A stretch of 64,000 nucleotides of DNA from Patescibacteria group bacterium (GCA_041653535.1 JBAZFH010000001.1:6052-70051); one strand, 5' to 3'. Positions 48,003-63,677 are shown, counted from the first letter of the stretch. Made by a program: numbers and translations. The notes: a model not told the origin generated them from the letters alone.

Positions 48003-48067
48003 TTCCGTCGCGAGCTTCGAATGGCGCGGCCATATTCTATTTATTAGGATTTCAGTATATTAAATTA

Positions 48068-48096: not shown

Positions 48097-48263
48097 CAGC
48101 AGCACTAATATTTAGTAGTTATTAATTTGTAATTTGAAATTATCTTTTGGGCGTATAGCTTCCACCTACGCCCTCATTACATTCGGGCTTCGGCGGACAA
48201 GCATCTGGTATTTCACCATTTGCCTGCCAGTCGAAGCTCGCCAGTAATGGCGAGTGTAGATTG

Positions 48264-48317
48264 GGGCGGTTAGCTCAGTTTCTGCCAGAGGCAGACCCGC
48301 CTTCGGCGGGGGTTAGA
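48264..48317 (+). pseudogene. tRNA-Val 5' fragment (GGGCGGTTAGCTCAG) fused to a 34-nt GC double-hairpin insert
   Basis: 15-nt exact duplicate of the 5' end of tRNA-Val at 48564, followed by tttctgccagaggcagacccgccttcggcggggg + ttaga. The same 48-nt junction recurs at 48683-48730. Confidence 0.6.
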
Positions 48318-48563
48318 TTGTTTTTTTATGTCGGGAATATATGTTTTAAAAAGTTTAAAAAACGGTAAAAGATATGTGGGTAGTACTCGTAAAGATGTAG
48401 ATTTAAGGTTGAAAGAGCATAATTATGGGTCAAATGTTTGGACTAGGCAAAACGGACCTTTTAAATTAATTTATAAAGAAGGTTTTACTGACTATAAAGA
48501 TGCTTTGAAAAGAGAAAGATTTTTGAAGTCAGGCCAAGGCAGAAAATTTTTAGATAGTATTTT
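48279..48563 (+). mobile_element. roughly 285-bp insertion carrying a GIY-YIG nuclease gene, flanked by a 15-bp direct duplication of the tRNA-Val 5' end
   Basis: Direct repeats gggcggttagctcag at 48264-48278 and 48564-48578. The insert begins with two GC hairpins (ctgcc-aga-ggcag; cccgcc-ttc-ggcggg). Confidence 0.5.
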
Positions 48564-48573
48564 GGGCGGTTAG
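48328..48573 (+). CDS. small GIY-YIG nuclease domain protein (YhbQ/UPF0213-like)
   Basis: GIYVLKSLKNGKRYVGST ... RLKEHN ... motif. The last codons and stop overlap the first 10 nt of tRNA-Val. Confidence 0.65.
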   Translation: MSGIYVLKSLKNGKRYVGSTRKDVDLRLKEHNYGSNVWTRQNGPFKLIYKEGFTDYKDALKRERFLKSGQGRKFLDSILGG

Positions 48574-48640
48574 CTCAGCTGGTTAGAGCGTTACATTGAC
48601 ATTGTAAAGGTCACAAGTTCGAATCTTGTACCGCCCACCA
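48564..48640 (+). tRNA. tRNA-Val (anticodon GAC)
   Basis: GGGCGGTTAGCTCAGCTGGTTAGAGCG, anticodon loop TTGACAT, T-loop AGTTCGAATCT, encoded CCA. Terminator hairpin cagagactatagaagtctctg + T-run follows at 48645-48671. Confidence 0.85.
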
Positions 48641-48682
48641 AAGGCAGAGACTATAGAAGTCTCTGTTTTTTGTTGTATAAAA

Positions 48683-48783
48683 TTAGCTCAGTTTCTGCCA
48701 GAGGCAGACCCGCCTTCGGCGGGGGTTAGAGCGTTACATTGACATTGTAAAGGTCCGTGGTTCGAGTCCACGTATGCCCACCA
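48683..48783 (+). pseudogene. 5'-truncated second tRNA-Val(GAC)-like gene, D-arm onward, with the same 34-nt insert in its D-loop
   Basis: ttagctcag + 34-nt insert + ttagagcgttacattgacattgtaa ... ggttcgagtcc ... tatgcccACCA. No matching 5' acceptor strand (GGGCATA) upstream. Confidence 0.55.
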
Positions 48784-49325
48784 AAAGAACACCAGTGATG
48801 GTGTTTTTTTGTTTATTTAAAAAAGCCGACATTGCTATGTGCATCGTCGGCTATTGTTTTGATGCTAATCTTCGTCATCGTCTTCTAGCCCGTCAGAGGG
48901 CGGAAAGATTTCTATTGGATGATCTTCATTGTCTAGTTTTATGGCTAGCGCTAGGAGCATCAAGGCGTTTCTGGTTCTGGGGCTGCGACCGCCTCCGAAA
49001 TAAGTTCGGAAACGTAATACTGGTCCATGATGACCGTCTGTGCATACCCAGGCGTCACCGTCTTCCGAAAACTGGACTATTATTTGTCCTTTTGCCGTTC
49101 CGTCATTATCATCATGAAGTCGGGCGAATGTTTCTTTCGACGATAGGTCTGGAATCTAAAAGGGGTTGTTTAGAACACGATAGGCGTCTTTGATTAATCT
49201 TGCCGTTCCCGGTTCCGGTGGCATTTGCATTTCTCCTTTTGAGGTTGGTTTTTAAAATAAGCAGTGTTTTTTTGGTGCGTTAATAAATGCTAGCAAAAGG
49301 TCGTGTGAATAGCAAATGGGTATTT

Positions 49326-49354
49326 TTGACAAAAAGGCTTAACATTGTTAATAT
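49326..49354 (+). promoter_or_regulatory. promoter TTGACA-17-TAATAT
   Basis: Upstream of the glycoside-hydrolase gene. Confidence 0.5.
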
Positions 49355-49409
49355 TTATAGTCCATTGAAAATAAATAACTGTCGGAAATACATAGAAAGG
49401 GAGGGCACT

Positions 49410-50486
49410 ATGTCGCAAATTGAAAAAAAATTATTTGCTGCAACTGCGATTTTGCGTCGTTGTATTGGCAAGGAAGGTATCTGGGCCGACTCGACTCGTT
49501 ACCAGTATCAGTGCTGGACGCGTGATTTTGTATTGGCAGTGTTGGAAGTTTTGTTGCAATCGCAGCGAGACGACCTAATCCGAAAACATCTTCACGGCAT
49601 TGCCTTTCGGCAACAACCAAACGGTCAAATTCCGATCCTTTTTTTGGAAAATGAGTTTTGCTGGCTCTGGGAAAAAATCAAGCGCAGTATCAAAAATCGT
49701 AAAGTTTCTTTTATGCTGCGTCGGTACTTCACCGGACATCTGTGGGATCTTACTCCCGGGACAAGGGACTCGGAAATCATGTTTCTTGTCGGCATGTATG
49801 AATATGCCAAGCAGTCCGGCGACAACAGTTTGGTTGCCGAGCACAATGTCGGTTTGTACCGAGCGCAGACCTACATTGAAAAATTTTTAATGGAAAACGG
49901 TCTGGTCGTCGGTTGCGATTGGCGCGACACCATGGAGCGTGAGCTTGGCGACAAACCGCTACTGACCAACAATTCTTTGATGTATCGCGCTTATAATCTG
50001 ATGGGCGAAAAAGAAAAAGCCGATCGGTTGCGTGCGAACATCAATTCAGTGTTGTGGGACGGGCAGCGCTATCTGGATTATCCGGATAGCGAGCGCTTTG
50101 ATCCGCTCGGTGGCGCGTTGGCCGTACTGTATGATGTGGCTTTGCCGGAACGTTATGCCAGTATCATCGAAGGGTTCCGGTCGGTTGATACCGATCGCGG
50201 TGTAACCATTCAATGTCGGCATAATCCGATGGTTGCCGAAGAAGCCAAAGTGATCAACCGCACCAACGGCGTGGTGATCTGGCCATTTGTTCTCGGGTTC
50301 ACCGTCTTGGCTTTGATCAAGATGGGTGAGAAAAAGTTGGCCAAGGCGCAGTTCGACAAACTGGTCGCGCTTGACGGTTTCCGCGAGTGGTACGACCCAG
50401 CGACTGGCAAGGGTTATGGCGCCAAAGAGCAGCTTTGGTCCGCGGCGCTTTATTTGCGGGCACTGAGAGCGATTCGCAATATGTGA
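49410..50486 (+). CDS. (alpha/alpha)6-barrel glycoside hydrolase, glycogen-debranching/GH63/GH15-like
   Basis: RBS AAAGGGAGGG; start MSQIEKK. Motifs CWTRDFVLAVL and QLWSAALYLRA typical of six-hairpin glycosidases. GC about 52%. Confidence 0.55.
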   Translation: MSQIEKKLFAATAILRRCIGKEGIWADSTRYQYQCWTRDFVLAVLEVLLQSQRDDLIRKHLHGIAFRQQPNGQIPILFLENEFCWLWEKIKRSIKNRKVSFMLRRYFTGHLWDLTPGTRDSEIMFLVGMYEYAKQSGDNSLVAEHNVGLYRAQTYIEKFLMENGLVVGCDWRDTMERELGDKPLLTNNSLMYRAYNLMGEKEKADRLRANINSVLWDGQRYLDYPDSERFDPLGGALAVLYDVALPERYASIIEGFRSVDTDRGVTIQCRHNPMVAEEAKVINRTNGVVIWPFVLGFTVLALIKMGEKKLAKAQFDKLVALDGFREWYDPATGKGYGAKEQLWSAALYLRALRAIRNM

Positions 50487-50500: not shown

Positions 50501-50746
50501 ATGTTCGAAATAACCAAGCCGATCGACACGGCAGCTGATACGCAAGGAGAGCTTCAGGTTTTTTCCGCAAGCCCTGAAGGAAGCGAAGTTGACCCCGGTA
50601 GCATTAGTCACGTTATTGGTAGTGACGAAGTGAGTATTCGGTCGAACGTCGCTTTCGGTGGATCGATTTCCGTGAAGGGACGGGAAAGTTTGAAACTTTT
50701 GAGGGATGCCTTGGTCAGTATATGCAAGACTGAGGATATTAAGTAA
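50501..50746 (+). CDS. hypothetical small protein
   Basis: RBS AAAAAGGAAGAG + ATG at 50501; 81 aa. Confidence 0.45.
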   Translation: MFEITKPIDTAADTQGELQVFSASPEGSEVDPGSISHVIGSDEVSIRSNVAFGGSISVKGRESLKLLRDALVSICKTEDIK

Positions 50747-50858
50747 GGATATTAAGTAATAAACAATCAACCAAAACCGGTGAGATGTAATATTTCGTCG
50801 GTTTTTTGTTTTAGGTGGCGCGCGGCTGCGTGGCTCGCAGCAAGGGGAAATACTGTTC

Positions 50859-50879
50859 CCAGCTACCAACTACCAGCTA
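50859..50879 (+). repeat. heptamer tandem repeat (CCAGCTA CCAACTA CCAGCTA) upstream of promoter
   Basis: Three tandem 7-nt units ending 22 nt before the -35 hexamer TTGACA at 50902. Confidence 0.7.
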
Positions 50880-50901
50880 CTAACGTGGGGACAACCCTTT
50901 C

Positions 50902-50930
50902 TTGACATAATCGGTAAAGTTAAGTAAGAT
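50902..50930 (+). promoter_or_regulatory. promoter TTGACA-17-TAAGAT
   Basis: Drives the small ORF at 50957. Confidence 0.5.
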
Positions 50931-50956
50931 ACAAAATTAACAGTTTATATAATTTT

Positions 50957-51112
50957 ATGAAAATTAATTGGCCAAAATACAACCTAATCGCCTACACCAA
51001 CCGCTTTGTTAGCGGAGCTTTTGGCATGCTTGTGGTTTTTCTAACCGCAATTGCTGCTGGCAGCTCTCTGAGGGCAGAATATTTTTGGCGCTTTTATTTT
51101 CTAATGACTTAA
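50957..51112 (+). CDS. candidate 51-aa hydrophobic peptide with its own promoter and terminator
   Basis: MKINWPKYNLIAYTNRFVSGAFGMLVVFLTAIAAGSSLRAEYFWRFYFLMT. No SD. Terminator hairpin atatcctgctctaacgcaggatat + T-run at 51137-51168. Confidence 0.25.
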   Translation: MKINWPKYNLIAYTNRFVSGAFGMLVVFLTAIAAGSSLRAEYFWRFYFLMT

Positions 51113-51230
51113 TTTGTCTTATATATAAAAACCTCGAAATATCCTGCTCTAACGCAGGATATTTTTTAACCACCTCTCAAAAGCCACGAACTTTAACAAT
51201 TATATAGACCTTACCTAAAGGAGGTAGACC

Positions 51231-53060
51231 ATGTCGGACTGGGAAGACCAAACCGCAGGCAAAGACAGGAATCTGCATTTTTTTGTCACCGGAATGAGAA
51301 CTCTTTGGGATTTGCTCGGGCAAGAAAAAGGAAGGCTGACGGCGCTACTCGGCTGGCAAGTATTCCTTTCGTCGCTTACCCTGCTTTTTCCTTATTTACT
51401 GAAACTGGTTTTTGACCAGTTACCGCTGGTACTGGCCGGCACTGCTTCGATTGGATATATTGTTCAACTGATAGTAGCGATGTTTGTCATCAAAACCTGC
51501 GCCCAATTTTTGCATCATTTTTCCAAGGAGAAAAGATTTGCCAACAGTGTAATCTATCTGGAAAACTGGTGGCCGGTAATGGCGCAACAAAAACTGCTTG
51601 ATCTATCGCTTGGTTACCATGAAAAAGAAAACACCGGCAAAAAAATCGCTCGCATCAATAAAGGCTGTGACAAGCTGGTAGAAATTCTCATGCATCTGTT
51701 TTGGGGATTTTTGCCGCAGCTGTTTTTTCTGGTAGTGAACCTGGCTATCGTGTTAATTATTGATTGGCGACTGGGACTAGCTTTTGCTCTACCGTTTATC
51801 CCGGCAGCGATCATTAATATCAAAGCCTTTGATCGTTTTTCCGCAGACTGGGAAGAATGGGAAAGGAAAAAAGAAGTCTCGACCGGGTTTTTCTGCCAGT
51901 CGATAATCAACGTCAACACTGTTCAGAGTTTTGTTCAGGAAAAAGAAGAAGAAAGCCGTCTATGCGAAGTGCGTCAAAGCATGGAAAAATTGGACATCAA
52001 AGTTAATCGTCGGTTGCAAAAATGGCTTTTTGCCGTTGGTTCGATATTGCACCTGTGTTTTGTACTGACCATCGCTCTCGGCGTTTATCTGGTGATAAAC
52101 AAACAGACAAGTGTCGGTACATTGGTTTATCTGGTGGCCACCGGCACCGTTACTATCGATTCGCTTTGGGAGACGATCAACGTCTACATGCGAATCATGC
52201 GCAATCTAGTGGCTGTTCGCCGGATGAAAGAATTGATCGATGAACCGGTGGATATTGTTAACGGCGCTGAAGCCAAAACACTCGACGAGTTTGTTGGCGA
52301 TGTCGCCTTCGAGCAAGTAAACTTTGTTTATCCGGGCAAAACCGAGCCGGTGCTTGATGACTTTAACTTGAGTATTGCTGCCGGACAAATGGTGGCTCTG
52401 GTAGGAAAAAGCGGTGAAGGCAAAACCACAATCGCGCGACTAGTGTCTCGGATGTATGATCCGATCAATGGGCAGATAACCCTAGATCACAACGACATTC
52501 GCGATCTAGATTTGTACTGGTATCGCCGACTGTTTGCAGTAGTGCAGCAAGATGTCGACATTTTTGACGGTACGCTTTTCTACAACATCAGTTATCCGTG
52601 CGCTGGCGCTACTGAGGAGCAAGTGCTGGAAGCTTTGTCTGCCGCTCACCTAGGAGTGGTACTAAAAGACGCCAAGCGTTTTCCCGATGGCCTACAAACT
52701 CAAGTAGGCGAGCGAGGAGTACGGCTTTCTGGCGGTGAACGTCAGCGTGTCGGTATTGCTCGCGCCTATCTAGCGCTACTTTGCGGCGCAAGGATACTGA
52801 TCCTCGACGAAGCAACGTCGAGTCTGGATAGTGAAGCAGAGAGGGCGATCCAGACAATGCTTGACAAACTTCGTTCCAGGCAAGGTATTACTGTAATTGC
52901 TATTGCCCACCGGCTGTCAACTATCCAGCGCGCTGACAAAATCTGCGTGATCAGCGGCGGGACGATTACCGAGCAAGGCGATCATCAACAACTGATGAAA
53001 CAAAACGGACTCTATTCACATCTGGTTGAGCTGCAACAGCTCGGTGATTTGCGAGAATAG
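51231..53060 (+). CDS. ABC transporter, fused permease/ATPase exporter (MsbA/MdlB-like)
   Basis: Six-TM domain + Walker A GKSGEGKTT, signature LSGGERQRVGIARA, Walker B ILILDEATS. RBS AAAGGAGG. Confidence 0.85.
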   Translation: MSDWEDQTAGKDRNLHFFVTGMRTLWDLLGQEKGRLTALLGWQVFLSSLTLLFPYLLKLVFDQLPLVLAGTASIGYIVQLIVAMFVIKTCAQFLHHFSKEKRFANSVIYLENWWPVMAQQKLLDLSLGYHEKENTGKKIARINKGCDKLVEILMHLFWGFLPQLFFLVVNLAIVLIIDWRLGLAFALPFIPAAIINIKAFDRFSADWEEWERKKEVSTGFFCQSIINVNTVQSFVQEKEEESRLCEVRQSMEKLDIKVNRRLQKWLFAVGSILHLCFVLTIALGVYLVINKQTSVGTLVYLVATGTVTIDSLWETINVYMRIMRNLVAVRRMKELIDEPVDIVNGAEAKTLDEFVGDVAFEQVNFVYPGKTEPVLDDFNLSIAAGQMVALVGKSGEGKTTIARLVSRMYDPINGQITLDHNDIRDLDLYWYRRLFAVVQQDVDIFDGTLFYNISYPCAGATEEQVLEALSAAHLGVVLKDAKRFPDGLQTQVGERGVRLSGGERQRVGIARAYLALLCGARILILDEATSSLDSEAERAIQTMLDKLRSRQGITVIAIAHRLSTIQRADKICVISGGTITEQGDHQQLMKQNGLYSHLVELQQLGDLRE

Positions 53061-53217
53061 ATAGTTCAATCAACCAAAGCCCCTGGCAGCAATGTCGGGG
53101 GTTTTTAATAGCGCATAGCCGATAGTCCTCCTTCGCCAAGGCTGCGGCGTACAGGCTCATAGCTGATAGGGGATAAAAAAATAACGCCGGTAATTTTTGG
53201 TTACCGGCGTTGATGTG

Positions 53218-53799
53218 TTAAGGCGTGGTTCTATAGAGAGGGTCGATGATCTGTAGTTCTTTGTTGGCGTGCCAGAAGTGTTCGAGAGATCCTTTGTGTC
53301 TATTCCACCACTCAACTTCTTTTGTTGGCTCAATGAACTCTGGCCAAAGGAATGGAATGTGTATGGAGCTGAGAGCTACGCCTGTGACATCGTTGCTATC
53401 GGCGCGTATCCGTATTAATTTGTTGCCATCAAAGGTATGGCCATAGAGTTTCATGATAATACGGATCGACACGTCTTCGTAATGCGGCGCTTTAGCTTTT
53501 TGGATGGAGTAATCCAGTCCGGACTCTACGTCTGATTCTAGCTCTGTCCAAACTTCGCTGGCCTGTTTGAATAGATCTGTCCACAGATAGCGAGTATTTG
53601 GGCTAAGAAAATGCAGCTCGTAGCAAAGTTCATAAAGCCGCAGTGCTTCTGGCAGGTCGAGCAGTCGTGGACCGAGACGATGTCGTATGCGCCAGTTGCC
53701 AGCGCCGTAGGCTTTGTCGTAACCGGCCAGCCTGTCATTTTTGGCTTCGCCAAACCATCCGGGGTTAGAGACTGTTATCCAACGTTTTGACAGCTTCAT
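53218..53799 (-). CDS. hypothetical protein
   Basis: RBS AAAAGGAGCA + ATG; 193 aa with no recognisable family. Confidence 0.55.
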   Translation of the reverse strand: MKLSKRWITVSNPGWFGEAKNDRLAGYDKAYGAGNWRIRHRLGPRLLDLPEALRLYELCYELHFLSPNTRYLWTDLFKQASEVWTELESDVESGLDYSIQKAKAPHYEDVSIRIIMKLYGHTFDGNKLIRIRADSNDVTGVALSSIHIPFLWPEFIEPTKEVEWWNRHKGSLEHFWHANKELQIIDPLYRTTP

Positions 53800-53926
53800 C
53801 TGTTTGCTCCTTTTTTAGTTTTGGTATTTCAAGACAGTATTCTATTTTAGCGGGGGAGTAATATTATGTCAATAATTGTTGGACAAATGTTGACGAAATC
53901 CTGACAACAGTTTACACTGAGTCTAT

Positions 53927-54700
53927 ATGGAAATACAATCAATGCTCAAAAAAATAGGATTAAATGACAAAGAGGTTAAAGTTTATTTAACCTTATTTGA
54001 AAATGGGGCAACCAAACCGACGGTTTTGGCAAAGATGACAAAGTTAAATCGAGCCACTTTATATAATGTAGCTCAAGGGTTAATTTCCAAAGGAATTGTT
54101 TCCGGAGATTTGAGTGGCAAGTCGCTTGTTTTTACGCCACTGCCACCTAGTGATTTAGAAAAGATTCTTGCTCCAGCTAAAAGAGATTTGGAGGAGAAGG
54201 CGAGTTTAATCGAAGAGGCGGTTAGCGAGCTTAACTTAATAGTTAGCGGCAAGCAATATCCTATACCCAAAATTAGGTTTATCGAAGAAAATAATTTAGA
54301 AAAATTTCTTTTTGATAATTTAGAAAAATGGCAGGATGAAGTGATTGGTTCCGATGGTGTCTGGTGGGGCTACCAAGATCATACCTTTGCCGCTAGCTTT
54401 GAAAAGTGGCTGGACCAAACTTGGCGAACAACTCAAAGTAAAAATAGTCATTATCAGGCGCAAGTTTTTAGTAATGTGTCGGAAACCGAAAGCAAGCTGA
54501 AACGTAAATATGCCAATCCTAAACGACAAGTTAGGTTTTTAGAAAATACCAGTTTTACTGCTACCACTTGGGTTTGTGGCGATTATTTGATTATGATTAT
54601 GACGCAGCAACACCCATATTATCTGATAGAGATTCATGACCAGTTTTTGGCTCAAAATACCAAGGAAGTTTTTAAGAAACTTTGGGAGCTATCGAAATAG
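53927..54700 (+). CDS. TrmB-family transcriptional regulator
   Basis: N-terminal winged HTH (LNDKEVKVYLTLFENGATKPTVLAKMTKLNRATLYNVAQGLISKGIV). Confidence 0.7.
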   Translation: MEIQSMLKKIGLNDKEVKVYLTLFENGATKPTVLAKMTKLNRATLYNVAQGLISKGIVSGDLSGKSLVFTPLPPSDLEKILAPAKRDLEEKASLIEEAVSELNLIVSGKQYPIPKIRFIEENNLEKFLFDNLEKWQDEVIGSDGVWWGYQDHTFAASFEKWLDQTWRTTQSKNSHYQAQVFSNVSETESKLKRKYANPKRQVRFLENTSFTATTWVCGDYLIMIMTQQHPYYLIEIHDQFLAQNTKEVFKKLWELSK

Positions 54701-54900
54701 CTTTTAGCACCTTTGTTGTCATCCTGAACCCTTCGTCCCGCGTCGCGGGACTCAGGATAAACTCCGTTAAGGATCCCTCTTGATTGCCCACGACGGAAAA
54801 ATACTAATATTCACGTAATCATCGACGATTAAGTTTTATTTAATATTCGCTTTCATTTCTTTTCTGGAGGGATTCTTCGCTCCGCTCAGAATGACAATCC

Positions 54901-54921
54901 CCAACTACCAACTACCAACTA
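54901..54921 (+). repeat. heptamer tandem repeat (CCAACTA)x3 occupying the -35 region of a TATAAT promoter
   Basis: ccaactaccaactaccaacta + cc + gtatgc + TATAAT (54930-54935) + 8 nt + ATG at 54944. Possible leaderless transcript. Confidence 0.7.
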
Positions 54922-54943
54922 CCGTATGCTATAATTATTCCAT

Positions 54944-56038
54944 ATGAACAAACAACAAGAAATCCTGGCCTTATCTAAACGGCTTATCTCTATACCCAGC
55001 GTGGTGGGTGATTTTGCGGCACAGCAAAAATGTCTAGATTTTATAGAAAGATATTTCAAAGGATTGCCGGCATTAAAAGTGAAGCGGTTTCGGTTTGGCG
55101 ATCACGGCTCACTACTGTTTTATAATCAATCAGTCAAAAATCCCGACGTTTGTTTTTACGGTCACGTAGATGTGGTTAAAGCAGAAAAAAGACAGTTTTC
55201 TCCTAAGGTCAAAGGTGACAAACTTTTCGGCCGAGGAGCAAGCGACATGAAAGCGGTACTTGCTGCGCAGATGGTGCTACTCAAAGATTTGATAAAGTCG
55301 GGATATGCCGGTTCGGTTGCTTTGCTTGTCGTCACCGACGAAGAAATCGGCGGCGCGCTTGGTGCACAGAAAATTGCTGACGAGTTTAATTTTAGACCGG
55401 GATGCATTTTGGTTCCCGACGGCGGTGACAATTGGAAAATGTCGATCGGCGAAAAAGGTGTACACTGGACAGAAATTGCTTTTGAAGGAAAACCGGATCA
55501 CGGTTCACGGCCGTGGCTGGGGGTTAATGCTGGTGAAGAACTAATGGCGGCTTATGAAAAAATCAAGAAATCTTTTCGGCAAGCTAAATCAGAAAAAGAC
55601 AGTTTGTTGACCATTAATCTTGGCGCAATCGAGGGTGGAGTGAACTATAACCAAGTGATGCCTAGCGCGACCATGGGTCTGGATATCCGTTACCCCAAAA
55701 ATATTAAACTATCAGAAATCAAGAAAAAAATTAAAGCAGCACTACCGCTATATGCCAAGGTGAAAAGTTTGGAAGAGTCGCCAGCTTGGTCAGTGGATCT
55801 GGATAATAAACTGATCAAAAGATTTACCCGTTCCGCTTGCAAAGTTTTACGTCGCAAAAAAATCGAACAGCAGATTTCCTGTGGCGCATCTGACGCCCGG
55901 ATGTTTGGTTGGATTGGTGTGCCGACGATTGTTTTCAAACCCGTCTGTGGTGGGATGCATTCTCGTGATGAGTGGGTGAGTATAAAAGCATTGGGTAAAT
56001 TTTACGATATTTACAAGGACTTTTTGCTTAGCAAATAA
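54944..56038 (+). CDS. M20-family metallopeptidase/deacylase (ArgE/DapE-like)
   Basis: Motifs FYGHVDVV, GRGASDMKA, VVTDEEIGG. Confidence 0.75.
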   Translation: MNKQQEILALSKRLISIPSVVGDFAAQQKCLDFIERYFKGLPALKVKRFRFGDHGSLLFYNQSVKNPDVCFYGHVDVVKAEKRQFSPKVKGDKLFGRGASDMKAVLAAQMVLLKDLIKSGYAGSVALLVVTDEEIGGALGAQKIADEFNFRPGCILVPDGGDNWKMSIGEKGVHWTEIAFEGKPDHGSRPWLGVNAGEELMAAYEKIKKSFRQAKSEKDSLLTINLGAIEGGVNYNQVMPSATMGLDIRYPKNIKLSEIKKKIKAALPLYAKVKSLEESPAWSVDLDNKLIKRFTRSACKVLRRKKIEQQISCGASDARMFGWIGVPTIVFKPVCGGMHSRDEWVSIKALGKFYDIYKDFLLSK

Positions 56039-56159
56039 AGCTGTTTGACAACGGTTCTACCCAGAGTTACGATAAAGATGTATGAATAGTATTTATCAAT
56101 CTTTTGTTTTCTTTTTCGGATTTTTCTTTAGAAAGCGGGGATTTGATATTGCTTAAAGA

Positions 56160-56188
56160 TTGACAAAACTGATCAAAAGTGATATAAA
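56160..56188 (+). promoter_or_regulatory. promoter TTGACA-17-TATAAA
   Basis: Followed by a 5'UTR hairpin ccctatc-aatccc-gataggg and RBS AAGGAG. Confidence 0.5.
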
Positions 56189-56250
56189 TCCCTATCAATC
56201 CCGATAGGGGTTTTTAGTTCGTTAAAAACGAAAAGAAAGGAGTGCTAAAA

Positions 56251-57393
56251 ATGCAGCACAGGGGTATCTTTTTTCATCACACTCGAGATGTCGTTGATGG
56301 TATGCCCGAGTTGCTGTTTAGTTTTCCTTTGCGGATGCTAATAGCGGCTCGGCAGGGTGACAAGGTAGTACTACCGATCGGCGTCGAGCCGCTGGAGTTG
56401 GAATTACTTAACCGTCTCGGCTTTGGTCCGCGACCGGAAGACGTAGTTTACGTTGATGGCAATTTGACTTCGGCGGATTTGCACGGCAAGGTGTTTCCGT
56501 TTTCCGGTTGCTCAGTGCAGCAGCGACAAATGGTTGAGTTGGCAGGACTAGACTTTGCCGCACCGTCTTTGGAGATTTGTCGTCAGGCTGACAGCAAAGC
56601 TTTTTTTCAGTCGGTGCTTCATGATTTGCGTCTGCGGCCGTTTGGTAGGATCGTGGTAACCGGCGATCGAGAGAGGATGAAGGAAGTGGTCAAGGAAATG
56701 CTTTCTCGTCACGGGTCGCTACTACTAAAAGCAGCGCACTCAACTAGCGGTTTGCAGCAACACTTGATCATGTCGCTTGCAGACTTGCCGGAAGATTTGG
56801 CGCTGAAAGGAAAAGCGGTGGTGCAGGAATTTATTCCGCACGTTGTTTCTCCCTCGGCGCAATACTACCTGAAACCGGGCGGTAACTGGAAATTGAATTC
56901 CATGACCACGCAGATTTTGGACGGTCGTCATCATGTGGGAAATATTTTCCCGCCGACTGATCTGTCGCCGGAAGTGATTGCCGAGATTGAAAAAATCGGC
57001 AGTCGTATCGTGCCGCGTTACGCTGAGCTTGGATACTACGGTCCGCTTAGCGTAGACTTTATGCTAACGGAAAACAATCGGTTGTTTCCCTGTGAGGTCA
57101 ACGCTCGAGTTACCGCTCCGTGGTACCCTTGGGAAGCGGCTCGGCGCAACTTGGGCGCGCCGGTTCCATTTTGGATGAAAAGTCTGCGGATTAATCCAAA
57201 GACAACGATTGCAAAAATGGAAAAAGTCTTGGGAAAACTTTTGTTTAACCCCAAGACCAAAAAAGGCGCGCTGCCTTTCTCTTTTTTGCCCAAGCAGAAT
57301 TTTACCTATCTGGTGATTTACGGTTCGAATCAAAACGAATTCGTGAACCGTCTAGTGCCCCAAGTACAGTGGGCACTGGCTAAACTAGGCTAA
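56251..57393 (+). CDS. ATP-grasp domain protein (paralog A)
   Basis: ATP-grasp signatures LLLKAAHSTSG, VVQEFIP and CEVNARVTAPWYP. RBS AAGGAG + 8 nt + ATG. Confidence 0.6.
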   Translation: MQHRGIFFHHTRDVVDGMPELLFSFPLRMLIAARQGDKVVLPIGVEPLELELLNRLGFGPRPEDVVYVDGNLTSADLHGKVFPFSGCSVQQRQMVELAGLDFAAPSLEICRQADSKAFFQSVLHDLRLRPFGRIVVTGDRERMKEVVKEMLSRHGSLLLKAAHSTSGLQQHLIMSLADLPEDLALKGKAVVQEFIPHVVSPSAQYYLKPGGNWKLNSMTTQILDGRHHVGNIFPPTDLSPEVIAEIEKIGSRIVPRYAELGYYGPLSVDFMLTENNRLFPCEVNARVTAPWYPWEAARRNLGAPVPFWMKSLRINPKTTIAKMEKVLGKLLFNPKTKKGALPFSFLPKQNFTYLVIYGSNQNEFVNRLVPQVQWALAKLG

Positions 57394-57452
57394 CAATCAA
57401 TGAACCGTCTCGCTACGCAGTGGGACGGTTTTTCTTTTTTCCACGACTGCTC

Positions 57453-57660
57453 TCATGCCGCCTGCCTGCCGGTAGGCAGGGGTAGGCAGATACCCAGCCG
57501 CAGAGCCCTGCAGCTGGGTAACCAAAGATTTTCGGGGGTGGCATAAGCCCGAGTTTTATAGCACCTTAAGGTTCTTTAAACCCGCCTCGCCCCTTCCGCT
57601 CACTTACGTTCGACTCTCGGGGTTCGGCTCGGGGCAACGCCACCCCCGAACCCCCGATGC
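57453..57660 (+). repeat. GC-rich structured element, family copy A
   Basis: 5' module ctcatgccgcctgcctgccggtaggcaggg; central hairpin ccagccgcag-agccc-tgcagctgg; gattttcgggggtggcataagcccgag; caccttaaggtt; 3' cggggttcgg...ccgaacccccg hairpin. Confidence 0.7.
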
Positions 57661-57801
57661 TAAGCATTTTTATTTTATACATAATAAAAAATAAAAAGGA
57701 GTATTGACGGTAAGAAAAAAAGCTGTTAAATTACAAATTCGAGGCTTTTTGAAAAACAACAAAGCGAAAAAAAATACAGGAGGCTATACAGGAGGCTATA
57801 A

Positions 57802-59052
57802 ATGAGAGGTGCTAACGCTGCGGTACATATCCATGACGTTGTTGCGTCTTACCCTCTGCAAACAGTGCCGGGGCTAGGACGCTACGCTTGGCGATCACTA
57901 CTTCTCAAAGGAGCAAAGGTTGTCGGGCGTCATCCCAGTTTGAACGACTATCTTGCTTTTCTTAAGGAGGTGAAGGTTGGTAATGGCGGGGAAGTACTAA
58001 CTGCTTATGACGATCATCTTTACGACGTTGTTTTGGGCGATCGTAACTTACAGCGCGAGATTGATCGTTTGCTGTGCGTTGAAGATCGAACACTGCGACT
58101 ATTTGCCATCACCGAAAATGATGAAAAATTTTTGCGGTTGACCGGTTGGCAGAAAAAATCCGAGGTTTTTGCTCCGCCGCTACAGCTTTCGCTACGGGCA
58201 AATGACAAGGCATTTTTACGCCGGCTGGCGGTAGAAAAAGGAATCGGAAATATTTTTCCGCCCTTTGTTATCGTTGCAACAGTTGACGGTCTGGCCCGAG
58301 CGGTGGAGAGGATGTCTCGTGTCAATGACAGTGACTTTATCGTGGTCAAAGCAACCAATCTGGCCAGCGGTGAAGGCATGACTTTCACCAGTGAAAGAGA
58401 AAAGGCGATTGCCTTTGGTCGCAAGCTTTTTGCCAATGGTCAAAAAGAGGTGATTGTCGAAGCCGGCTACGACTCTGACAGTTATAGTATGCAATGGGAG
58501 CTGCGCCCACGCGATTTTCGCTTTCTCGGTGCGTCAGCTCAAATCATGAGTCATCACGGTAAAGTGCATGAAGGTAATATCGTGTCTTCGTCTTTACGGC
58601 AACTACCCGGTATTACCGAAAGAGAAATTGCTCGGATGCAGGGTCGCGCTTATCCACTGATCGATTGGTTTTGGCGGCAAGGACACCGCGGTATCTTTGG
58701 AATTGATTTTATCAAAACCAAGAAAGAACGTCGGCATCGTTTGCTACTGCTGGAATCCAATGCTCGTGTCACTGCCAGTACTTATCCTTTTTCGGTCGGT
58801 CGACAGCTTGCCGATCGCGGCATCGTTGAATACGGTATTGCCGCGCGAAATTGCTATCCATCAAGTCAGATGAATTGGGATGGACTGGTGAAGTTTTTGG
58901 GTAGCGATATTTTCGACGGAGAGAAAGGGATCTTACCTTATATTCCTAACTGTTTGCCGGAAAAAGTCGGGCTGATGGCGATCGCACCAGACGCTCCGGC
59001 TGCCGAAGATATGCTGGCGCACTACCACTGGGCGCTAGCACGTAATACGTAA
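57802..59052 (+). CDS. ATP-grasp domain protein (paralog B)
   Basis: LLESNARVTASTYPFS parallels CEVNARVTAPWYPWE of paralog A. Tandemly duplicated SD acaggaggctat x2 before ATG. Confidence 0.55.
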   Translation: MRGANAAVHIHDVVASYPLQTVPGLGRYAWRSLLLKGAKVVGRHPSLNDYLAFLKEVKVGNGGEVLTAYDDHLYDVVLGDRNLQREIDRLLCVEDRTLRLFAITENDEKFLRLTGWQKKSEVFAPPLQLSLRANDKAFLRRLAVEKGIGNIFPPFVIVATVDGLARAVERMSRVNDSDFIVVKATNLASGEGMTFTSEREKAIAFGRKLFANGQKEVIVEAGYDSDSYSMQWELRPRDFRFLGASAQIMSHHGKVHEGNIVSSSLRQLPGITEREIARMQGRAYPLIDWFWRQGHRGIFGIDFIKTKKERRHRLLLLESNARVTASTYPFSVGRQLADRGIVEYGIAARNCYPSSQMNWDGLVKFLGSDIFDGEKGILPYIPNCLPEKVGLMAIAPDAPAAEDMLAHYHWALARNT

Positions 59053-59188
59053 ACAATAAGTCAGAACCCCCGTTCGTCTAGGCGAATGGGGGTTTTAAAA
59101 TTGCTCCCTTCTGTGTGCGGTGAAGGCGTTTGTTAATAAGTTCTTGGATAATGAAACGAACACCTTTATTTTACTATTAGTTTTTTGC

Positions 59189-59377
59189 CCTCATGCCGGG
59201 CCGGCAGATACTTTCTGCAAACAGAAAGTATCCAAAGATTTTCGGGGGTGGCATAAACCCGAGTTTATAGCACCTTAAGGTTTTCTTACCCCGCCTCAAC
59301 CCATTCCGCTCGCCCCGCCAAGGCGGGGCTCGACTCTCAGGGTTTCGGCTCGGGGCAATGCCACCCCCGAACCCCCG
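59189..59377 (+). repeat. GC-rich structured element, family copy B
   Basis: ctcatgccgggccggcag; central perfect hairpin gatactttctg-caaa-cagaaagtatc; gattttcgggggtggcataaacccgag; caccttaaggtt; 3' tcggctcggggcaatgccacccccgaacccccg. Confidence 0.7.
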
Positions 59378-59488
59378 TAATTTTAGTATTTTAATATTTT
59401 TTTAAAACACCTGCCCTCGCGCAGATTTGTCGTCCTTAATTTTTCGATTTAAAAAACCGTCCTACTGTATAGCGGGACGGTTGGTTTT

Positions 59489-59722
59489 CTAGGTGATGCT
59501 GGCGACGTCTTTGTTTGTGAGAAAAACTACGTCGGCAAAGCCCTTTTTGATAAGAATGCCGCCGGGCACAATGGCGGGCGTTCTGCTGCCGTCCGGCGCG
59601 GTCGCTATTTGCGCTTGCGATGCGATATGTCTTAAGATTTCTCCGGTGATCTTTTCGCCGTCAACTAGAGTAACGGTAACCAGGTTACTTCTGAGGAATA
59701 TCGGACCGATGACATTTTTCAC
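59489..59722 (-). CDS. hypothetical small protein, possibly Sm-like beta-rich
   Basis: RBS AAGGAGG + 7 nt + GTG; 77 aa. Terminator hairpin ccgtcccgctatacagtaggacgg + T-run downstream on minus. Co-oriented immediately after the DHH gene. Confidence 0.45.
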   Translation of the reverse strand: MKNVIGPIFLRSNLVTVTLVDGEKITGEILRHIASQAQIATAPDGSRTPAIVPGGILIKKGFADVVFLTNKDVASIT

Positions 59723-59738
59723 TTTTTGTCCTCCTTTA

Positions 59739-60881
59739 TTAAAACTTTGGTTCGTAGCTTTGTTTGAATACAGAAACCACTTTTTCTTCGGCTAGAACCA
59801 GATCGTTACCGGCGATTTTGAACCGGACAAAGTTTTTGTCGCCAATCGGGATAAATTCGGTCAAAGCTTTTTGCAAGTCAGTAGAACCCAAGGATCTGGC
59901 AAAAACGCCAATATTCAAATTATCAAGGTGATAAAGCAAAATCGCTACATCGACATTTGGTACGGCGCTGAGCAGTTCATCGATGATATCGGGTAACGCG
60001 CTGCCGTCGGTTTTGGTATCGGCAAAATCTTGTTCGCTGATAGTAGCGGTAATCAGTTTGCCGCCGTAGTGCTCTTTGAGTTTGGTTAGTGTTTGTCCCC
60101 ATAGTTTGAGCGTGGCAACATCACGACTATAATAAAGGTTTTTCACTATTTCTTCGCGGCGCGCTTCGTTTTTGATCAAGTCGCTGGAAATTTGCAAAGT
60201 ATAAGGATTAATCATTCCCGCTTTGAAACTTTTGGTTTTATCAATAATGCCGGTCAGCAGGCAGGTGTTTACATCCGGGCTGAAAAGTTTTTCATTCCAG
60301 GATTTAATCAGGTTATAAAGCACGCCGCAGGTCGATGATGATGTCATATCTATAAAATTGATTTGACCGTATTGTTCGTTCGCCGGAGAATAATCGATAT
60401 TCAAAATTGGTCGGCGAAAGAAAAATTCCCTGTTTTTGGAAAACACGTCGCCAAGCGATTCCAGATCGGGAGTGTCAATGATGATAATTTGGTCGTAACG
60501 CCAGTCGGAAATACTCGCTCGTACATCCTGTGGCCCGAAAAACTCATTTTGCGGAGAAAGAAATATTTTTAGCTGTTCGCCGTCTGTATCATAGTGAAAC
60601 TCGTCTTGTTTTATTTTGTTTTTATCAATACTGATAATCATCCGGCGAAGAGTTTCCAGGGTCGGTTTGACATTTTCATTTCCAGGCAAAAATTTGTATC
60701 CTTTGGGTAAAATAAAACCATCACAAACCACATCGGGGAGTTTGCCCATTTTTTGCAGGATCAGATTTAGAGCTAGCGCGCCAGCCAAAGCGTCGCCAGA
60801 AAAATGTTTACGGAAAACAATTAACGGTTTGTTCGTTTTGACTAGTGCGGCAATAGCCTGCTGTTCGATAGTTAGACCCAT
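59739..60881 (-). CDS. DHH-family phosphoesterase (NrnA-like oligoribonuclease/pAp phosphatase)
   Basis: N-terminal DHH motif region (IVFRKHFSGDALAGALAL) and C-terminal DHHA1-like domain. Confidence 0.7.
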   Translation of the reverse strand: MGLTIEQQAIAALVKTNKPLIVFRKHFSGDALAGALALNLILQKMGKLPDVVCDGFILPKGYKFLPGNENVKPTLETLRRMIISIDKNKIKQDEFHYDTDGEQLKIFLSPQNEFFGPQDVRASISDWRYDQIIIIDTPDLESLGDVFSKNREFFFRRPILNIDYSPANEQYGQINFIDMTSSSTCGVLYNLIKSWNEKLFSPDVNTCLLTGIIDKTKSFKAGMINPYTLQISSDLIKNEARREEIVKNLYYSRDVATLKLWGQTLTKLKEHYGGKLITATISEQDFADTKTDGSALPDIIDELLSAVPNVDVAILLYHLDNLNIGVFARSLGSTDLQKALTEFIPIGDKNFVRFKIAGNDLVLAEEKVVSVFKQSYEPKF

Positions 60882-61103: not shown

Positions 61104-63677
61104 ATGGATAAAGCCTATGAAGCCAAACAGGTTGAAGATAAGATTTACCAGATTTGGGAAGAGTCGGGTTTTTTTAATCCCGACAATTTAAAGGGTAAAG
61201 ATAAATATTGTAATGTTTTGCCACCACCTAATGCCAATGGCGAACTGCATATTGGTCACGCTTCAGGCTATGTAGTGATGGATTTTTTTGGTCGCTACCA
61301 GAGAATGCTCGGTAAAAAGGTTTTGCTTTTACCGGGAAAAGATCACGCCGGCATTCAGACGCAGGTGGTTTATGAGAAAAAGCTGAAAAAAGAGCAGGGA
61401 AAAACTCGTTATGATTTGGGTCGGGAAGAGTTTTATAAAGGGTGTTATGAGTTTTGTCTGGATCGGGCAAACTATATGCGCAACCAAGAAAGAAGGATTG
61501 GTTTGTCTGCTGACTGGTCGCGTGAGAAATTTACGCTTGATCCCGATCTGATCAAAACTGTTTCGGAAACTTTTGTTGAAATGTCGGAAGAAGGCTTGAT
61601 TTATCGCGGGCCGAGGATTATTAGTTGGTGTCCACGATGTTTTACTGCTTTGTCCGACATAGAGGTGGAGTACGAAGAGCAAGATGGCAAGCTCTATACT
61701 TTCAAGTATGATGCCGATTTTCCGTTTACTATTTCTACGACACGACCGGAGACTAAACTGGGCGATACGGCGGTGGCAGTTAATCCCAAAGATGAACGTT
61801 ATCAAAAATATATCGGACAGACGATCTCGGTCAATTTTTTGGGCGTGCCATTAAAACTAAAGATAATCGCTGACGATGGCGTTGACATGAACTTTGGTAC
61901 CGGTGCGCTTGGCGTAACGCCGGCGCATTCAATGGTTGATTATGAAATGGCGCAGAAGCATGATCTGGAAATTATTAGAGTGATTGATCAACAAGGAAAA
62001 ATTATCGTGGGTAATGATAATTTTAAGGCTTTTAAAGATTTAACAGCGCTGGAAGCTCGTGAAAAGGTTGTTGCCGACTTACGGCAGGCTGGTTTATTGA
62101 TCAAGGAAGAAGAATATAAAAACAATCTATCAGTCTGCGAGCGCTGTAAAACATCGGTTGAGCAATTGATTTCTGAACAGTGGTTTGTTAATGTGGATGA
62201 TTCTAAAAAGTCTTTGAAAAAAATGGCCAAGCGTGTGATCGAAAAAGGTGATATCAAAATTTATCCAGAGAAATTTAAAAAGACCATGCTTGATTGGATT
62301 GATAATGTTCATGATTGGTGTATTAGTCGACAGATTTGGTGGGGACCGCGCATTCCAGCTTGGTATCATCAGAGTAAGGGTCTAAAAGTTAGCCTGGATT
62401 CTCCCGGTGAAGGCTGGAAACAAGACGAAGATACTTTGGATACTTGGTTTTCTTCCGGTCAATGGGTTTACACCACGCTTGGTTATCCCAAAGGTAAAGA
62501 TTTTAAAGATTTTTATCCTACCGACAGCATGATTATGGGACGAGATCTGATTTTTTTCTGGGCTTTTCGAATGATTATAATGAGTCTGTACAAAACCGGC
62601 AAAGCGCCTTTTAAAAATTTGTATTTCACCGGATTGATTCGCGACGAGCAGGGAAGGAAAATGAGCAAATCTAAAGGTAACGGTATTGAGCCTCTAGAAA
62701 TGATTTCCAAATATGGTACGGACGCTGTACGGCTGTCTTTGGTTATTGGTTCTGCGCCGGGTAGTGATATGAACTTGGGTGAGGAAAAAATTGCCGGTTT
62801 TAGAAACTTTACCAACAAATTCTGGAATATCTCGAGATTTATCTTGATGATGATTGGTGAAGAAAAGATTGCCGACAAAACGCCCAAACCGAAAACTTTG
62901 GCGGATGCTTGGATTTTAAGCCGTTTGCAGCAAGTGATCGAGGTTGTTACTTTTAATATTGAAAAATTTAACTTATCTTTAGCCGGTGAGATTTTGCGAG
63001 ACTTCACTTGGAATGAGTTAGCCGATTGGTATTTGGAGATTGCCAAAATCGAAGGCGAGAAAAAAGAAATTTTAGCTTATATCTTACGGACTGTTTTGAA
63101 GCTCTGGCATCCGCTAATGCCGTTTGTCACGGAAGAAGTTTGGTCCAAATTTAACGACGGGATGATTTTGGTAGCACCTTGGCCGAAAGCAGAGAAAAAG
63201 TTGGCTGACGAATCAGTTGGTAAAGATTTTTTGTTAGTACAAGAAGTCGTCAGCGTTATCCGCAACCTACGCTCAGAAAACAAAGTTGAACCGGGTAAAA
63301 AAATAAAAGCGGTTGTCAAAGCGGGGGACAACGCGGATTTGGTTTCCAGCCAGAAAGAAATTATCACTACCTTGGCGCGACTAAGCGAATTGGAATTTAT
63401 TGAAAACGGTAAACCCGATAAATCTGCCGTAGCAGTGGTTGGCGGTGTGGAAGTATATTTGCCACTGGCCGATCTGCTCGATATCGATAAAGAAAAAGAA
63501 AGAATCGCCGGAGAAATAGAAATGACGAAAAAATATTGTGATAACGTCGGTGCTAAGCTATCTAACGATGATTTTGTCGCTCGCGCGCCGCAAGCAGTGG
63601 TGGATGGTGAAAAGAAAAAGTTAGAGCAAGCTAAAGAAAAACTGGAAAAACTAACCAAACAATGGGAAAGTTTGTAA
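61104..63677 (+). CDS. valS: valyl-tRNA synthetase
   Basis: HIGH (PPPNANGELHIGHA), KMSKS (RKMSKSKGN), editing domain and C-terminal coiled coil. Confidence 0.9.
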   Translation: MDKAYEAKQVEDKIYQIWEESGFFNPDNLKGKDKYCNVLPPPNANGELHIGHASGYVVMDFFGRYQRMLGKKVLLLPGKDHAGIQTQVVYEKKLKKEQGKTRYDLGREEFYKGCYEFCLDRANYMRNQERRIGLSADWSREKFTLDPDLIKTVSETFVEMSEEGLIYRGPRIISWCPRCFTALSDIEVEYEEQDGKLYTFKYDADFPFTISTTRPETKLGDTAVAVNPKDERYQKYIGQTISVNFLGVPLKLKIIADDGVDMNFGTGALGVTPAHSMVDYEMAQKHDLEIIRVIDQQGKIIVGNDNFKAFKDLTALEAREKVVADLRQAGLLIKEEEYKNNLSVCERCKTSVEQLISEQWFVNVDDSKKSLKKMAKRVIEKGDIKIYPEKFKKTMLDWIDNVHDWCISRQIWWGPRIPAWYHQSKGLKVSLDSPGEGWKQDEDTLDTWFSSGQWVYTTLGYPKGKDFKDFYPTDSMIMGRDLIFFWAFRMIIMSLYKTGKAPFKNLYFTGLIRDEQGRKMSKSKGNGIEPLEMISKYGTDAVRLSLVIGSAPGSDMNLGEEKIAGFRNFTNKFWNISRFILMMIGEEKIADKTPKPKTLADAWILSRLQQVIEVVTFNIEKFNLSLAGEILRDFTWNELADWYLEIAKIEGEKKEILAYILRTVLKLWHPLMPFVTEEVWSKFNDGMILVAPWPKAEKKLADESVGKDFLLVQEVVSVIRNLRSENKVEPGKKIKAVVKAGDNADLVSSQKEIITTLARLSELEFIENGKPDKSAVAVVGGVEVYLPLADLLDIDKEKERIAGEIEMTKKYCDNVGAKLSNDDFVARAPQAVVDGEKKKLEQAKEKLEKLTKQWESL

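Follow-up and report, generated by a model that had tools for sequence, protein, structure and literature searches.

The DNA analysed here, hereafter the window, is a stretch of 64,000 nucleotides (nt) from a metagenome-assembled genome of a Patescibacteria group bacterium, a member of the Candidate Phyla Radiation (CPR). This work concerns a region of it (positions 53218-59052) in which genes for a TrmB-family regulator, an M20 metallopeptidase/deacylase and two tandem ATP-grasp proteins, named A and B, follow one another on the plus strand. The products of the last two are identical to the deposited entries 'hypothetical protein WC310_00320/00325 [Patescibacteria group bacterium]', encoded on a contig of 347 kb. 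As set out below, A and B are most likely active ligases of the PGM1/BesA/LdmS clade, and the reading that they constitute, together with the M20 enzyme, a functional unit (54944-59052) acting as a small-peptide make-and-break module, with its substrate class inferred, is in our judgement evenly balanced between probable and improbable. Every open reading frame (ORF) of a preliminary description, made from the sequence alone, was recovered at its position in an ORF listing of the window. The GC content of about 50% which that description had ascribed to the whole ensemble applies to A (50.1%) and B (49.1%), but not to the TrmB (37%) and M20 (44%) genes nor to the region as a whole (45.4%), the value for the window being 42.7%.

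Sequence, predicted fold and clade of the ATP-grasp proteins

A and B share 24% identity across 263 amino acids (aa) (BLASTP, E 3e-9) and an E-x-N-A-R-V-T-A motif, in agreement with their earlier description as tandem divergent ATP-grasp paralogs with a common NARVTA signature; by sequence comparison they are anciently diverged paralogs. Gene A begins with the ATG at 56251, preceded by AGGAG 9 nt upstream. Both proteins fall below every curated family cut-off of Pfam and NCBIfam. The sole curated family touched by A is BesA (NF042917; 1.3e-7, 30.8 bits against an equivalog cut-off of 750), alongside a weak match to PDB entry 8yi6 (9e-5), and NF042917 gave no match to B. The Pfam matches of B, GARS_A (~2e-3) and ATP-grasp_3 (~5e-3), are both under cut-off, and NCBIfam purD scores 17.7 bits against 288. 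Orthology to housekeeping ligases, a check proposed in the preliminary description, was found for neither protein: no match to Ddl, PurK/PurT, GshB (GSH-S) or RimK was obtained at E<=0.01 in Pfam or NCBIfam. Likewise, the PADLOC defence models had no match for A, B, the M20 protein or the 193-aa protein encoded upstream of the regulator.

A word-indexed homologue search returned only A itself for A and two distant relatives for B, and a four-sequence profile yielded two more. A HMMER profile built from B, its two distant relatives and A was then scanned against 1.84 billion representative sequences (50% clustering), and matched 2,033 proteins at E<=1e-3, 633 at <=1e-10 and 53 at <=1e-30. Among the 90 top family matches, Pfam detected ATP-grasp_3 in 29, Pre-ATP-grasp (PF18604) in 17 and PGM1_C (PF18105) in one, and one member is fused with an asparagine-synthase/glutamine amidotransferase (GATase) module; PF18604 and PF18105 were undetected in A and B themselves, and the relative P0003 has a weak PGM1_C match (0.017). 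The sequences support two subfamilies: A-type, consisting of A (P0001), P0022, P0025 and P0036 (these three 40-41% identical to A) and P0056 (35%); and B-type, consisting of B (P0002), P0011 (Candidatus Nomurabacteria) and P0012 (both 45-46% identical to B), with more distant B-like proteins. A search with the A-type alignment gave two full-length relatives in GTDB genomes, five short partial matches and four metagenome loci; the B-type alignment found no locus in metagenomes. A-type and B-type represent two unannotated subfamilies lacking a Pfam or NCBIfam assignment, within a wider family of about 2,000 representatives.

When a profile of 33 family members was compared with PDB sequences, the best matches were PGM1 (6.4e-22), 8ynd (4.7e-16), BesA (6.5e-12) and LdmS (8.8e-12); PurD (2.8e-10), carbamoyl-phosphate synthetase (4e-8) and Ddl (1e-4) matched more weakly, with biotin-dependent carboxylases also behind. 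The AlphaFold2 model of A, computed from a 48-sequence alignment, reached a predicted local distance difference test (pLDDT) score of 93.1 and a predicted template modelling (TM) score of 0.91. Foldseek aligned this model with 8ynd, PGM1 (3wvq) and BesA at TM 0.76-0.80 and with LdmS at 0.70, the values for PurK and biotin carboxylase being lower (0.60-0.65). At E<=1e-3 it returned over 700 PDB matches, of which the 50 listed are without exception ATP-grasp enzymes; the modelled fold is the three-domain one of ATP-grasp proteins. The model of B is shallower and weaker (pLDDT 63.5), and its top Foldseek matches are again PGM1-like ligases.

The catalytic residues of ATP-grasp enzymes are two lysines, an aspartate and an E-x-N motif (PMC4431377). 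These are intact in A (K116, K160, D269 and E282-x-N284, plus R286) and in B (K136, K183, D302 and E318-x-N320, plus R322), and the same residues, including the following Arg, are invariant or nearly so across 33-48 relatives; the glycine-rich loop of A-type proteins is degenerate (S-x-S-G-L-Q-Q). Because of the profile ranking, the fold and the conserved catalytic residues, A and B are most likely active carboxylate-amine ligases of the PGM1/BesA/LdmS clade, in which they are placed as an uncharacterised branch. This placement, by profile and by Foldseek, agrees with the earlier view of A and B as ATP-grasp amide ligases. The consequence for annotation is modest, namely "ATP-grasp amide ligase, PGM1/LdmS-like", neither graspetide nor housekeeping, in a clade that comprises useful peptide-bond-forming biocatalysts.

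The M20 peptidase and the gene neighbourhoods of related loci

The M20 protein carries both the PF01546 (1.4e-28, 100.7 bits) and PF07687 (4e-14, 52.9 bits) domains. Its best PDB match is 2rb7 (3e-31), followed by DapE (~1e-18) and CPG2 (3e-13). It scores 171.7 bits against TIGR01910 (cut-off 217.6) and 65.9 bits against the [LysW]-lysine hydrolase LysK (cut-off 363), and lies far under the cut-offs of the DapE and ArgE equivalogs. Its sequence is thus ArgE/DapE/CPG2-like, beneath all curated cut-offs; the earlier call of an ArgE/DapE-like deacylase preceded by a heptamer repeat stands with respect to the domains and the repeat, the subfamily cut-offs not being reached. The regulator described upstream of it is a TrmB protein by its PF01978 match (3.2e-11, 43.4 bits, over the cut-off of 25.6); it adjoins the M20-A-B module, of which it is an unproven candidate member.

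Gene context was compared by tblastn in 30 related loci (identified below by L numbers; L030 is too short to inform), which provide a sample of ten lineages, the window and nine others, several of them on short contigs. Syntenic with the window are L008/L010, with an M20 gene (42% identity), A-type (41.5%) and B-type (46%) genes, two tRNA genes, genes for M28-like, C26 and 342-aa proteins, and DHH-like (43%) and ValS (62%) genes. In L008 the tRNA genes and the M28-like, C26 and 342-aa genes occupy the gap between the B-type and DHH-like genes, which in the window is the site of the GC-rich element copy E3 (Table 1), and tblastn found no homologue of the GATase/C26, M28 or 342-aa proteins in the window. 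The L008 C26 protein is PuuD-like, encoded on the opposite strand and 24-27% identical to other GATases. An attribution by eye of the 342-aa neighbour to GCS2-like proteins was dropped, as Pfam, NCBIfam and PDB gave it no support.

One high-GC lineage (L011/L014, L015, L021 and L024) displays an A-type gene, a membrane thioredoxin-like gene, a B-like gene and a class-I GATase gene, and in L026 a GATase gene comes after two family members in tandem. In L027 the genes for NDK, an A-type protein, a GCS2 ligase (Glu-Cys ligase/YbdK-like) and a gamma-glutamyltransferase (GGT; 376 bits, over the cut-off of 358) are succeeded by those for a divergent member of the family, which matches its profile at 4.5e-19, and for a PepT-like M20 protein. 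A B-like gene lies beside a GATase gene in L006 (Candidatus Nomurabacteria), L025 and L028; the B-like gene of L001 and L004 is more distantly related and accompanied by unrelated small proteins; and in L012/L013/L022 an NDK gene and an A-type gene are followed by the contig end. The GATases found directly beside B-like genes (L006, L011/L021, L025, L026 and L028) are stand-alone class-I enzymes, PRK07567/PRK09065-like, with an intact Cys-His-Glu triad. A literature search on ATP-grasp and GATase in Patescibacteria found no papers, and the pairing seems uncharacterised; this recurrent link to a class-I amidotransferase represents a testable lead.

Wherever the flank of a locus is long enough, a B-like member comes after the A-type gene, which amounts to five lineages counting the window (L008, the L011 group, L026 and L027 being the others). 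Across the ten lineages, a class-I GATase or C26 protein is a partner in six, an M20 peptidase in three and GCS2 with GGT in one; the M20 gene adjoins the pair in the window, in L008 (the 42% orthologue, at the same position) and in L027 (another M20 subfamily). Conversely, the window's ABC exporter, 51-aa ORF and 193-aa protein had no tblastn match in any of the 30 loci, the last having moreover no Pfam, NCBIfam, PADLOC or PDB match. Outside the window a TrmB gene was detected in L001 only, 1.3 kb from the B-like gene, with 32% identity confined to the helix-turn-helix (HTH) domain. By this comparison of loci, the conserved core consists of the ligase pair, and its association with the exporter, the small ORF and the regulator is not conserved. 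The preliminary description had joined these last three into one ensemble with the ligases, which the loci do not sustain; regarding the co-occurrence it had proposed to examine, the peptidase does recur (L008, L027) and the exporter occurs in 0 of the 30 loci.

A candidate small-peptide make-and-break module and its alternatives

In the proposed scheme, each of A and B would most likely use ATP to phosphorylate a substrate carboxylate to an acyl-phosphate, then coupled to an amine. Acting sequentially or as a heteromer, the two may form a short peptide-like product from amino acids (a di-/tripeptide or an amino-acid adduct), in which a glutamyl or gamma-glutamyl bond is plausible, and the neighbouring M20 enzyme would hydrolyse this product or a related peptide, giving a make-and-break cycle that could buffer or channel amino acids in a scavenging organism. 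That the two ligases act in sequence, which class of substrate they take and what the M20 enzyme does are inferred. The scheme is suggested by the clade placement, the intact catalytic residues, the pairing of A with B, the presence of neighbours related to peptide or gamma-glutamyl bonds, and the precedent of hmrA/ldmS; glutamyl or gamma-glutamyl chemistry in particular is suggested by the GCS2, GGT and C26 neighbours in relatives and by the link to BesA. From the peptide-ligation or modification system envisaged in the preliminary description, an amide-ligation module is retained, but not the kinds of system it had named, and with the exporter, small ORF and regulator outside it. CPR bacteria have tiny genomes, and are thought to possess next to no biosynthetic capacity and to scavenge almost everything; a conserved ATP-consuming ligase pair would therefore be among their few biosynthetic investments, and what it makes could matter to these episymbionts for buffering amino acids, for protection from stress or for the chemistry of the envelope. 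A bolder proposal, which we hold to be rather unlikely, is that A and B with the GCS2, GGT, C26/GATase and M20 partners found in related loci specify an undescribed gamma-glutamyl-type small peptide made and recycled by CPR bacteria, with A and B as an obligate two-step or heteromeric ligase; if so, the peptide might give protection in the manner of glutathione, act as an osmolyte or store amino acids.

The closest functional parallel is the staphylococcal hmrA/ldmS operon. LdmS (PDB 7r8p/7r8q) is an L-aspartate-L-methionine ligase that makes L-Asp-L-Met, and its gene shares a conserved operon with that of the M20 peptidase HmrA, an enzyme which the authors suggest may degrade the dipeptide; they also read the occurrence of some LdmS homologues among several ATP-grasp genes as stepwise oligopeptide synthesis (PMC9486568). 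Both systems thus encode a same-clade ligase beside an M20 enzyme that plausibly acts on the same dipeptide. Nevertheless, LdmS is distant (family profile 8.8e-12, ~13-14% identity in the fold alignment) and single, whereas two paralogous ligases are found here; the M20 protein of the window resembles ArgE/DapE, and its close PDB matches do not include HmrA; and the host is a CPR bacterium. Sulfur-metabolism elements precede hmrA/ldmS, an S-box riboswitch in some species and CodY/CymR sites in S. aureus (PMC9486568), whereas Rfam gave no riboswitch in the window, CodY/CymR sites not being searched for. The resemblance is accordingly functional and not one of orthology.

PGM1 (pheganomycin ligase, 3wvq/3wvr) and the Streptomyces ligase 8ynd/8ynq are the best profile and fold matches, with a common three-domain architecture including the C-terminal region; however, no conserved hydrophilic ribosomal precursor and no tailoring genes accompany A and B, which lack a PGM1_C Pfam match and are ~15% identical. 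BesA (PDB 8yi6), an L-propargylglycine-L-glutamate ligase producing a gamma-glutamyl dipeptide, aligns with the model of A at TM 0.78, and relatives of A and B adjoin gamma-glutamyltransferase, GCS2 and C26-type proteins; on the other side, A reaches 30.8 of the 750 bits required, no Bes pathway genes are present, and gamma-glutamyl chemistry is suggested solely by neighbours in other genomes. Literature searches on the BesA and 8ynd structures found no papers. Furthermore, the GCS2, ATP-grasp, GGT, M20 and PuuD-like C26 genes of relatives recall glutathione-type sets (GshA/GCS2 plus GshB; GGT plus M20) and PuuA/PuuD cycles, but A and B are not GshB, the window has only the M20 gene and two ligases, and no locus contains a complete canonical set.

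Several observations weigh against a make-and-break module. The sample of contexts is small, and the close relatives of A and B are all annotated as hypothetical, none with a known substrate. The M20 proteins of the window and L008 belong to a different subfamily from the PepT-like one of L027, to which the window's is 22% identical, and HmrA is absent among the PDB matches of the window M20 at E<=1e-10; any M20 link is therefore confined to the level of the family. Separate promoter-like and terminator-like sites accompany A and B, with a repeat element between the two genes, so that co-transcription is at most putative. Lastly, the partner in most sampled lineages is a class-I GATase, which is absent from the 64-kb window by tblastn, and such a partner may mean amidation in place of peptide formation.

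Under amidation or amidotransfer, the ATP-grasp enzyme would activate a carboxylate and a class-I GATase would give the ammonia for a carboxamide, the window having lost its GATase or encoding it elsewhere; this logic parallels that of MurT/GatD on lipid II and of carbamoyl-phosphate synthetase. We consider it unlikely, if not strikingly so. The GATases beside the B-like genes of L006, L011/L021, L025, L026 and L028 do carry the GxCxG and HPE triad motifs, two of them also match GATase_3 weakly, and the family member fused to an asparagine-synthase/GATase module points the same way. However, no GATase homologue was found in the window, the C26 protein of the closest relative diverges from the others as described above, and the GATase fold also yields gamma-glutamyl hydrolases, fitting a make-and-break cycle. 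Moreover, the characterised members of the clade use an amino-acid or peptide amine, not ammonia: PGM1 (PMC8939145), LdmS (PMC9486568) and, to go by its NCBIfam name, BesA. We regard as quite unlikely that A and B add amino acids to a peptidoglycan stem peptide or cross-bridge, with the M20 enzyme as a DapE-like or trimming carboxypeptidase activity. ATP-grasp enzymes do include a cell-wall amino-acid ligase, the enterococcal D-aspartate ligase; DapE enzymes are the nearest characterised relatives of the M20 protein; in L028 a Ddl-like gene precedes a B-like gene by 2.3 kb, and is itself preceded by glycosyltransferase (PMT) and YdjC genes; and the family occurs in CPR lineages, with their unusual envelopes. 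Against this, no mur, fem or ddl genes lie near A and B in the window or their relatives in most loci, the family profile matches Ddl at 1e-4 only, and the M20 protein stays under the DapE cut-offs.

A PGM1-style pathway, in which A and/or B would attach an amino-acid-like acid to a ribosomal peptide (encoded by the 51-aa or another small ORF) secreted by the ABC exporter, appears very unlikely. PGM1 is the top match by sequence and fold, small hydrophobic ORFs occur near A/B pairs in three lineages, and the exporter, described earlier as MsbA-like, lies 3.2 kb upstream of A; but these ORFs are mutually dissimilar and transmembrane-like, a Shine-Dalgarno sequence is missing in front of the 51-aa ORF, the exporter recurs in none of the related loci and its unit looks self-contained (promoter, leader of about 200 nt with terminator, gene), and natural-product tailoring genes are missing nearby. 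The two kinds of system suggested in the preliminary description, a graspetide (omega-ester/amide macrocyclised RiPP) cluster and a LysW-type amino-group-carrier pathway, both fail and are together extremely improbable. M20 deacylases are components of LysW pathways; the LysK score given above and the lack of a RimK-type ligase argue against one here. Graspetide clusters do exist in CPR bacteria, and PGM1-type ligases are treated as distinct from graspetide macrocyclases (PMC8939145). A and B fall in the PGM1/BesA/LdmS clade, and the family profile (60 sequence matches) and the models (top 50 fold matches) returned no MdnB/MdnC-type macrocyclase, nor was a RimK/LysX protein among the listed matches. 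Among all ORFs of 15-110 aa outside genes in 50700-59800, none is rich in both Thr/Ser and Asp/Glu with a ribosome-binding site, so that the adjacent precursor typical of graspetide clusters, with its P-h-h-x-h leader and Thr/Ser plus Asp/Glu core, is lacking, in line with the earlier statement that no such peptide was found; likewise, no LysW-like acidic tail stood out in this list, a LysW-specific search not having been made.

Transcription signals, repeats and other features of the window

Coordinates of the genes and elements are collected in Table 1.

Table 1. Genes, signals and repeat elements of the window, and a related element in L008.
Feature	Position	Strand	Basis or remark
GC-rich element, fragment	~41290-41350	+	Repeat comparison within window
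GC-rich element, third full copy	43083-43285	+	Repeat comparison within window
Heptamer copy	44609-44640	-	Motif count in window
Heptamer copy	44852-44876	-	Motif count in window
Glycoside-hydrolase-like ORF	49287-50486	+	ORF listing
Heptamer copy	50856-50880	+	Motif count in window
51-aa ORF	50957-51112	+	No Pfam/NCBIfam match
ABC exporter	51231-53060	+	Pfam ABC_membrane + ABC_tran
193-aa protein	53218-53799	-	Divergent from TrmB gene
TrmB-family HTH regulator, 257 aa	53927-54700	+	PF01978
Heptamer repeat (CCAACTA)x3	54898-54922	+	Motif count; directly before TATAAT (54931-54936) and M20 ATG (54944)
M20 dimeric metallopeptidase/deacylase, 364 aa	54944-56038	+	Peptidase_M20 + M20_dimer
ATP-grasp ligase A, 380 aa (P0001)	56251-57393	+	A-type subfamily
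Intrinsic-terminator-like hairpin + T-run	57402-57431	+	13-pair stem then TTCTTTTTT; directly 3' of A
GC-rich element, copy E2	57449-57660	+	Between A and B; minimum free energy (MFE) z-score -3.3
Promoter-like site TTGACG-17-TAAATT, TG-extended	57704-57732	+	Consensus match; upstream of B
ATP-grasp ligase B, 416 aa (P0002)	57802-59052	+	B-type subfamily
GC-rich element, copy E3	59188-59380	+	After B; MFE z-score -5.95
DHH-like gene	59739-60881	-	ORF listing
ValS	61104-63677	+	Pfam + NCBIfam
Related GC-rich element	L008 2555-2745		Between M20 and A-type genes

In the 204-nt leader of A, TTGACA occurs twice as a promoter-like site, together with a small hairpin, and ahead of the ATG of B lies a ribosome-binding region in which AGGAGGCTATA is duplicated; in the region as a whole, the totals of promoter-like and terminator-like sites do not exceed those of shuffles. 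Upstream of the M20 gene, the TATAAT ends 7 nt before the ATG, and the arrangement of repeat, TATAAT and start codon is likely that of a leaderless promoter; Rfam gave no match there at the gathering threshold or E<=1. Heptamers of the CCAACTA / CTACCCA type, in 3-4 units, produced 9 overlapping matches at four places of the window, against 0.01 expected, and two of these four copies immediately precede a TATAAT with the start codon 0-7 nt beyond (M20 and RluD-like genes), which suggests, from the sequence arrangement, that the heptamer stands in place of a -35 element in front of leaderless transcripts. Since copies lie both before and inside the unrelated RluD-like gene, the heptamer is not specific to this cluster, and its candidacy as a common regulatory site joining the exporter unit and the M20 gene was rejected. 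The RluD-like pseudouridine synthase gene itself (43910-44849, minus strand) is divided into two reading frames, with the S4 domain in one and the catalytic domain in the other, and the break falls exactly at the internal heptamer (44609-44640); possible causes are a frameshift, variation in the number of repeats or faulty assembly.

Copies of a GC-rich structured element had been described between A and B and after B, and both are present as E2 and E3. Its 16-nt core pattern has three matches in contrast to 0.12 expected, and the copies are always on the plus strand, intergenic and after terminators. Each displays a variable-but-paired hairpin followed by a long closing stem UUCGGGGGUGGC...GCCACCCCCGAA with a conserved CACCUU core; the closing stem shows compensatory changes among copies, with MFE z-scores of about -3.3 to -5.95. 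RNAalifold applied to four copies, including that of L008, gave 35 pairs, of which 10 show compensatory changes; between L008, the syntenic locus that carries the related copy, and the window, protein identity is only 42-62%. No Rfam family matched the element at the gathering threshold or E<=1, and it could be a new non-coding RNA, a cis-regulator or an element resembling miniature inverted-repeat transposable elements. Copy E2 is inserted between A and B, and need not be part of the enzymatic module.

Upstream of the regulator, the ABC exporter scores 353 bits against the MsbA lipid A exporter model (TIGR02203, cut-off 602); the exporter of the preliminary description is thus present, and its MsbA-like label is better replaced by that of a generic type-I ABC exporter, as its domains suggest. 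The stand-alone unit described before it was also recovered, with a promoter-like site (50902-50930, 10/12), the 51-aa ORF and a hairpin with T-run (51137-51164), ending 67 nt before the exporter start. The ORF, unlike its neighbours, has no Shine-Dalgarno sequence, and its product contains 2% Asp + Glu; the unit could equally be a transcribed leader (~230 nt) or a small RNA controlling the exporter, and had no Rfam match at the gathering threshold or E<=1. Small hydrophobic ORFs near A/B pairs were observed in L008 (4357-4452, 31 aa), L011 (2210-2338, 42 aa) and the window (the 51-aa ORF). They share no sequence similarity, the one in L008 was read by eye, the one in L011 has weak homologues, and two of the three have promoter-like and terminator-like signals of their own; their occurrence in three lineages may be a coincidence.

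Elsewhere in the window, the 23S rRNA gene (14866-18277) spans 3,231 nt of sequence in relation to a 2,925-position model, ~300 nt longer, which implies insertions; a 5S gene follows it, and no 16S gene was found anywhere in the 64 kb. Both features are frequent among CPR genomes. Within a tRNA cluster (47745-48780), repeats (48270-48322 and 48683-48735, 96%; 48581-48625 and 48724-48768, 89%) flank a GIY-YIG endonuclease ORF (48328-48573), with a low-scoring partial tRNA at 48722-48780, and may represent an endonuclease-associated duplication or a disrupted tRNA gene. Directly downstream of the DHH-like gene, an ORF of 77 aa (59489-59722, minus strand) has a strong ribosome-binding site, AAAGGAGG. 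Finally, two 31-nt stretches (42982-43012 and 53842-53872) are 84% identical and contain a TTGACA-17-TAAAAT promoter-like site on the minus strand, preceding the ribosomal protein L19 gene and the gene of the 193-aa protein, respectively.

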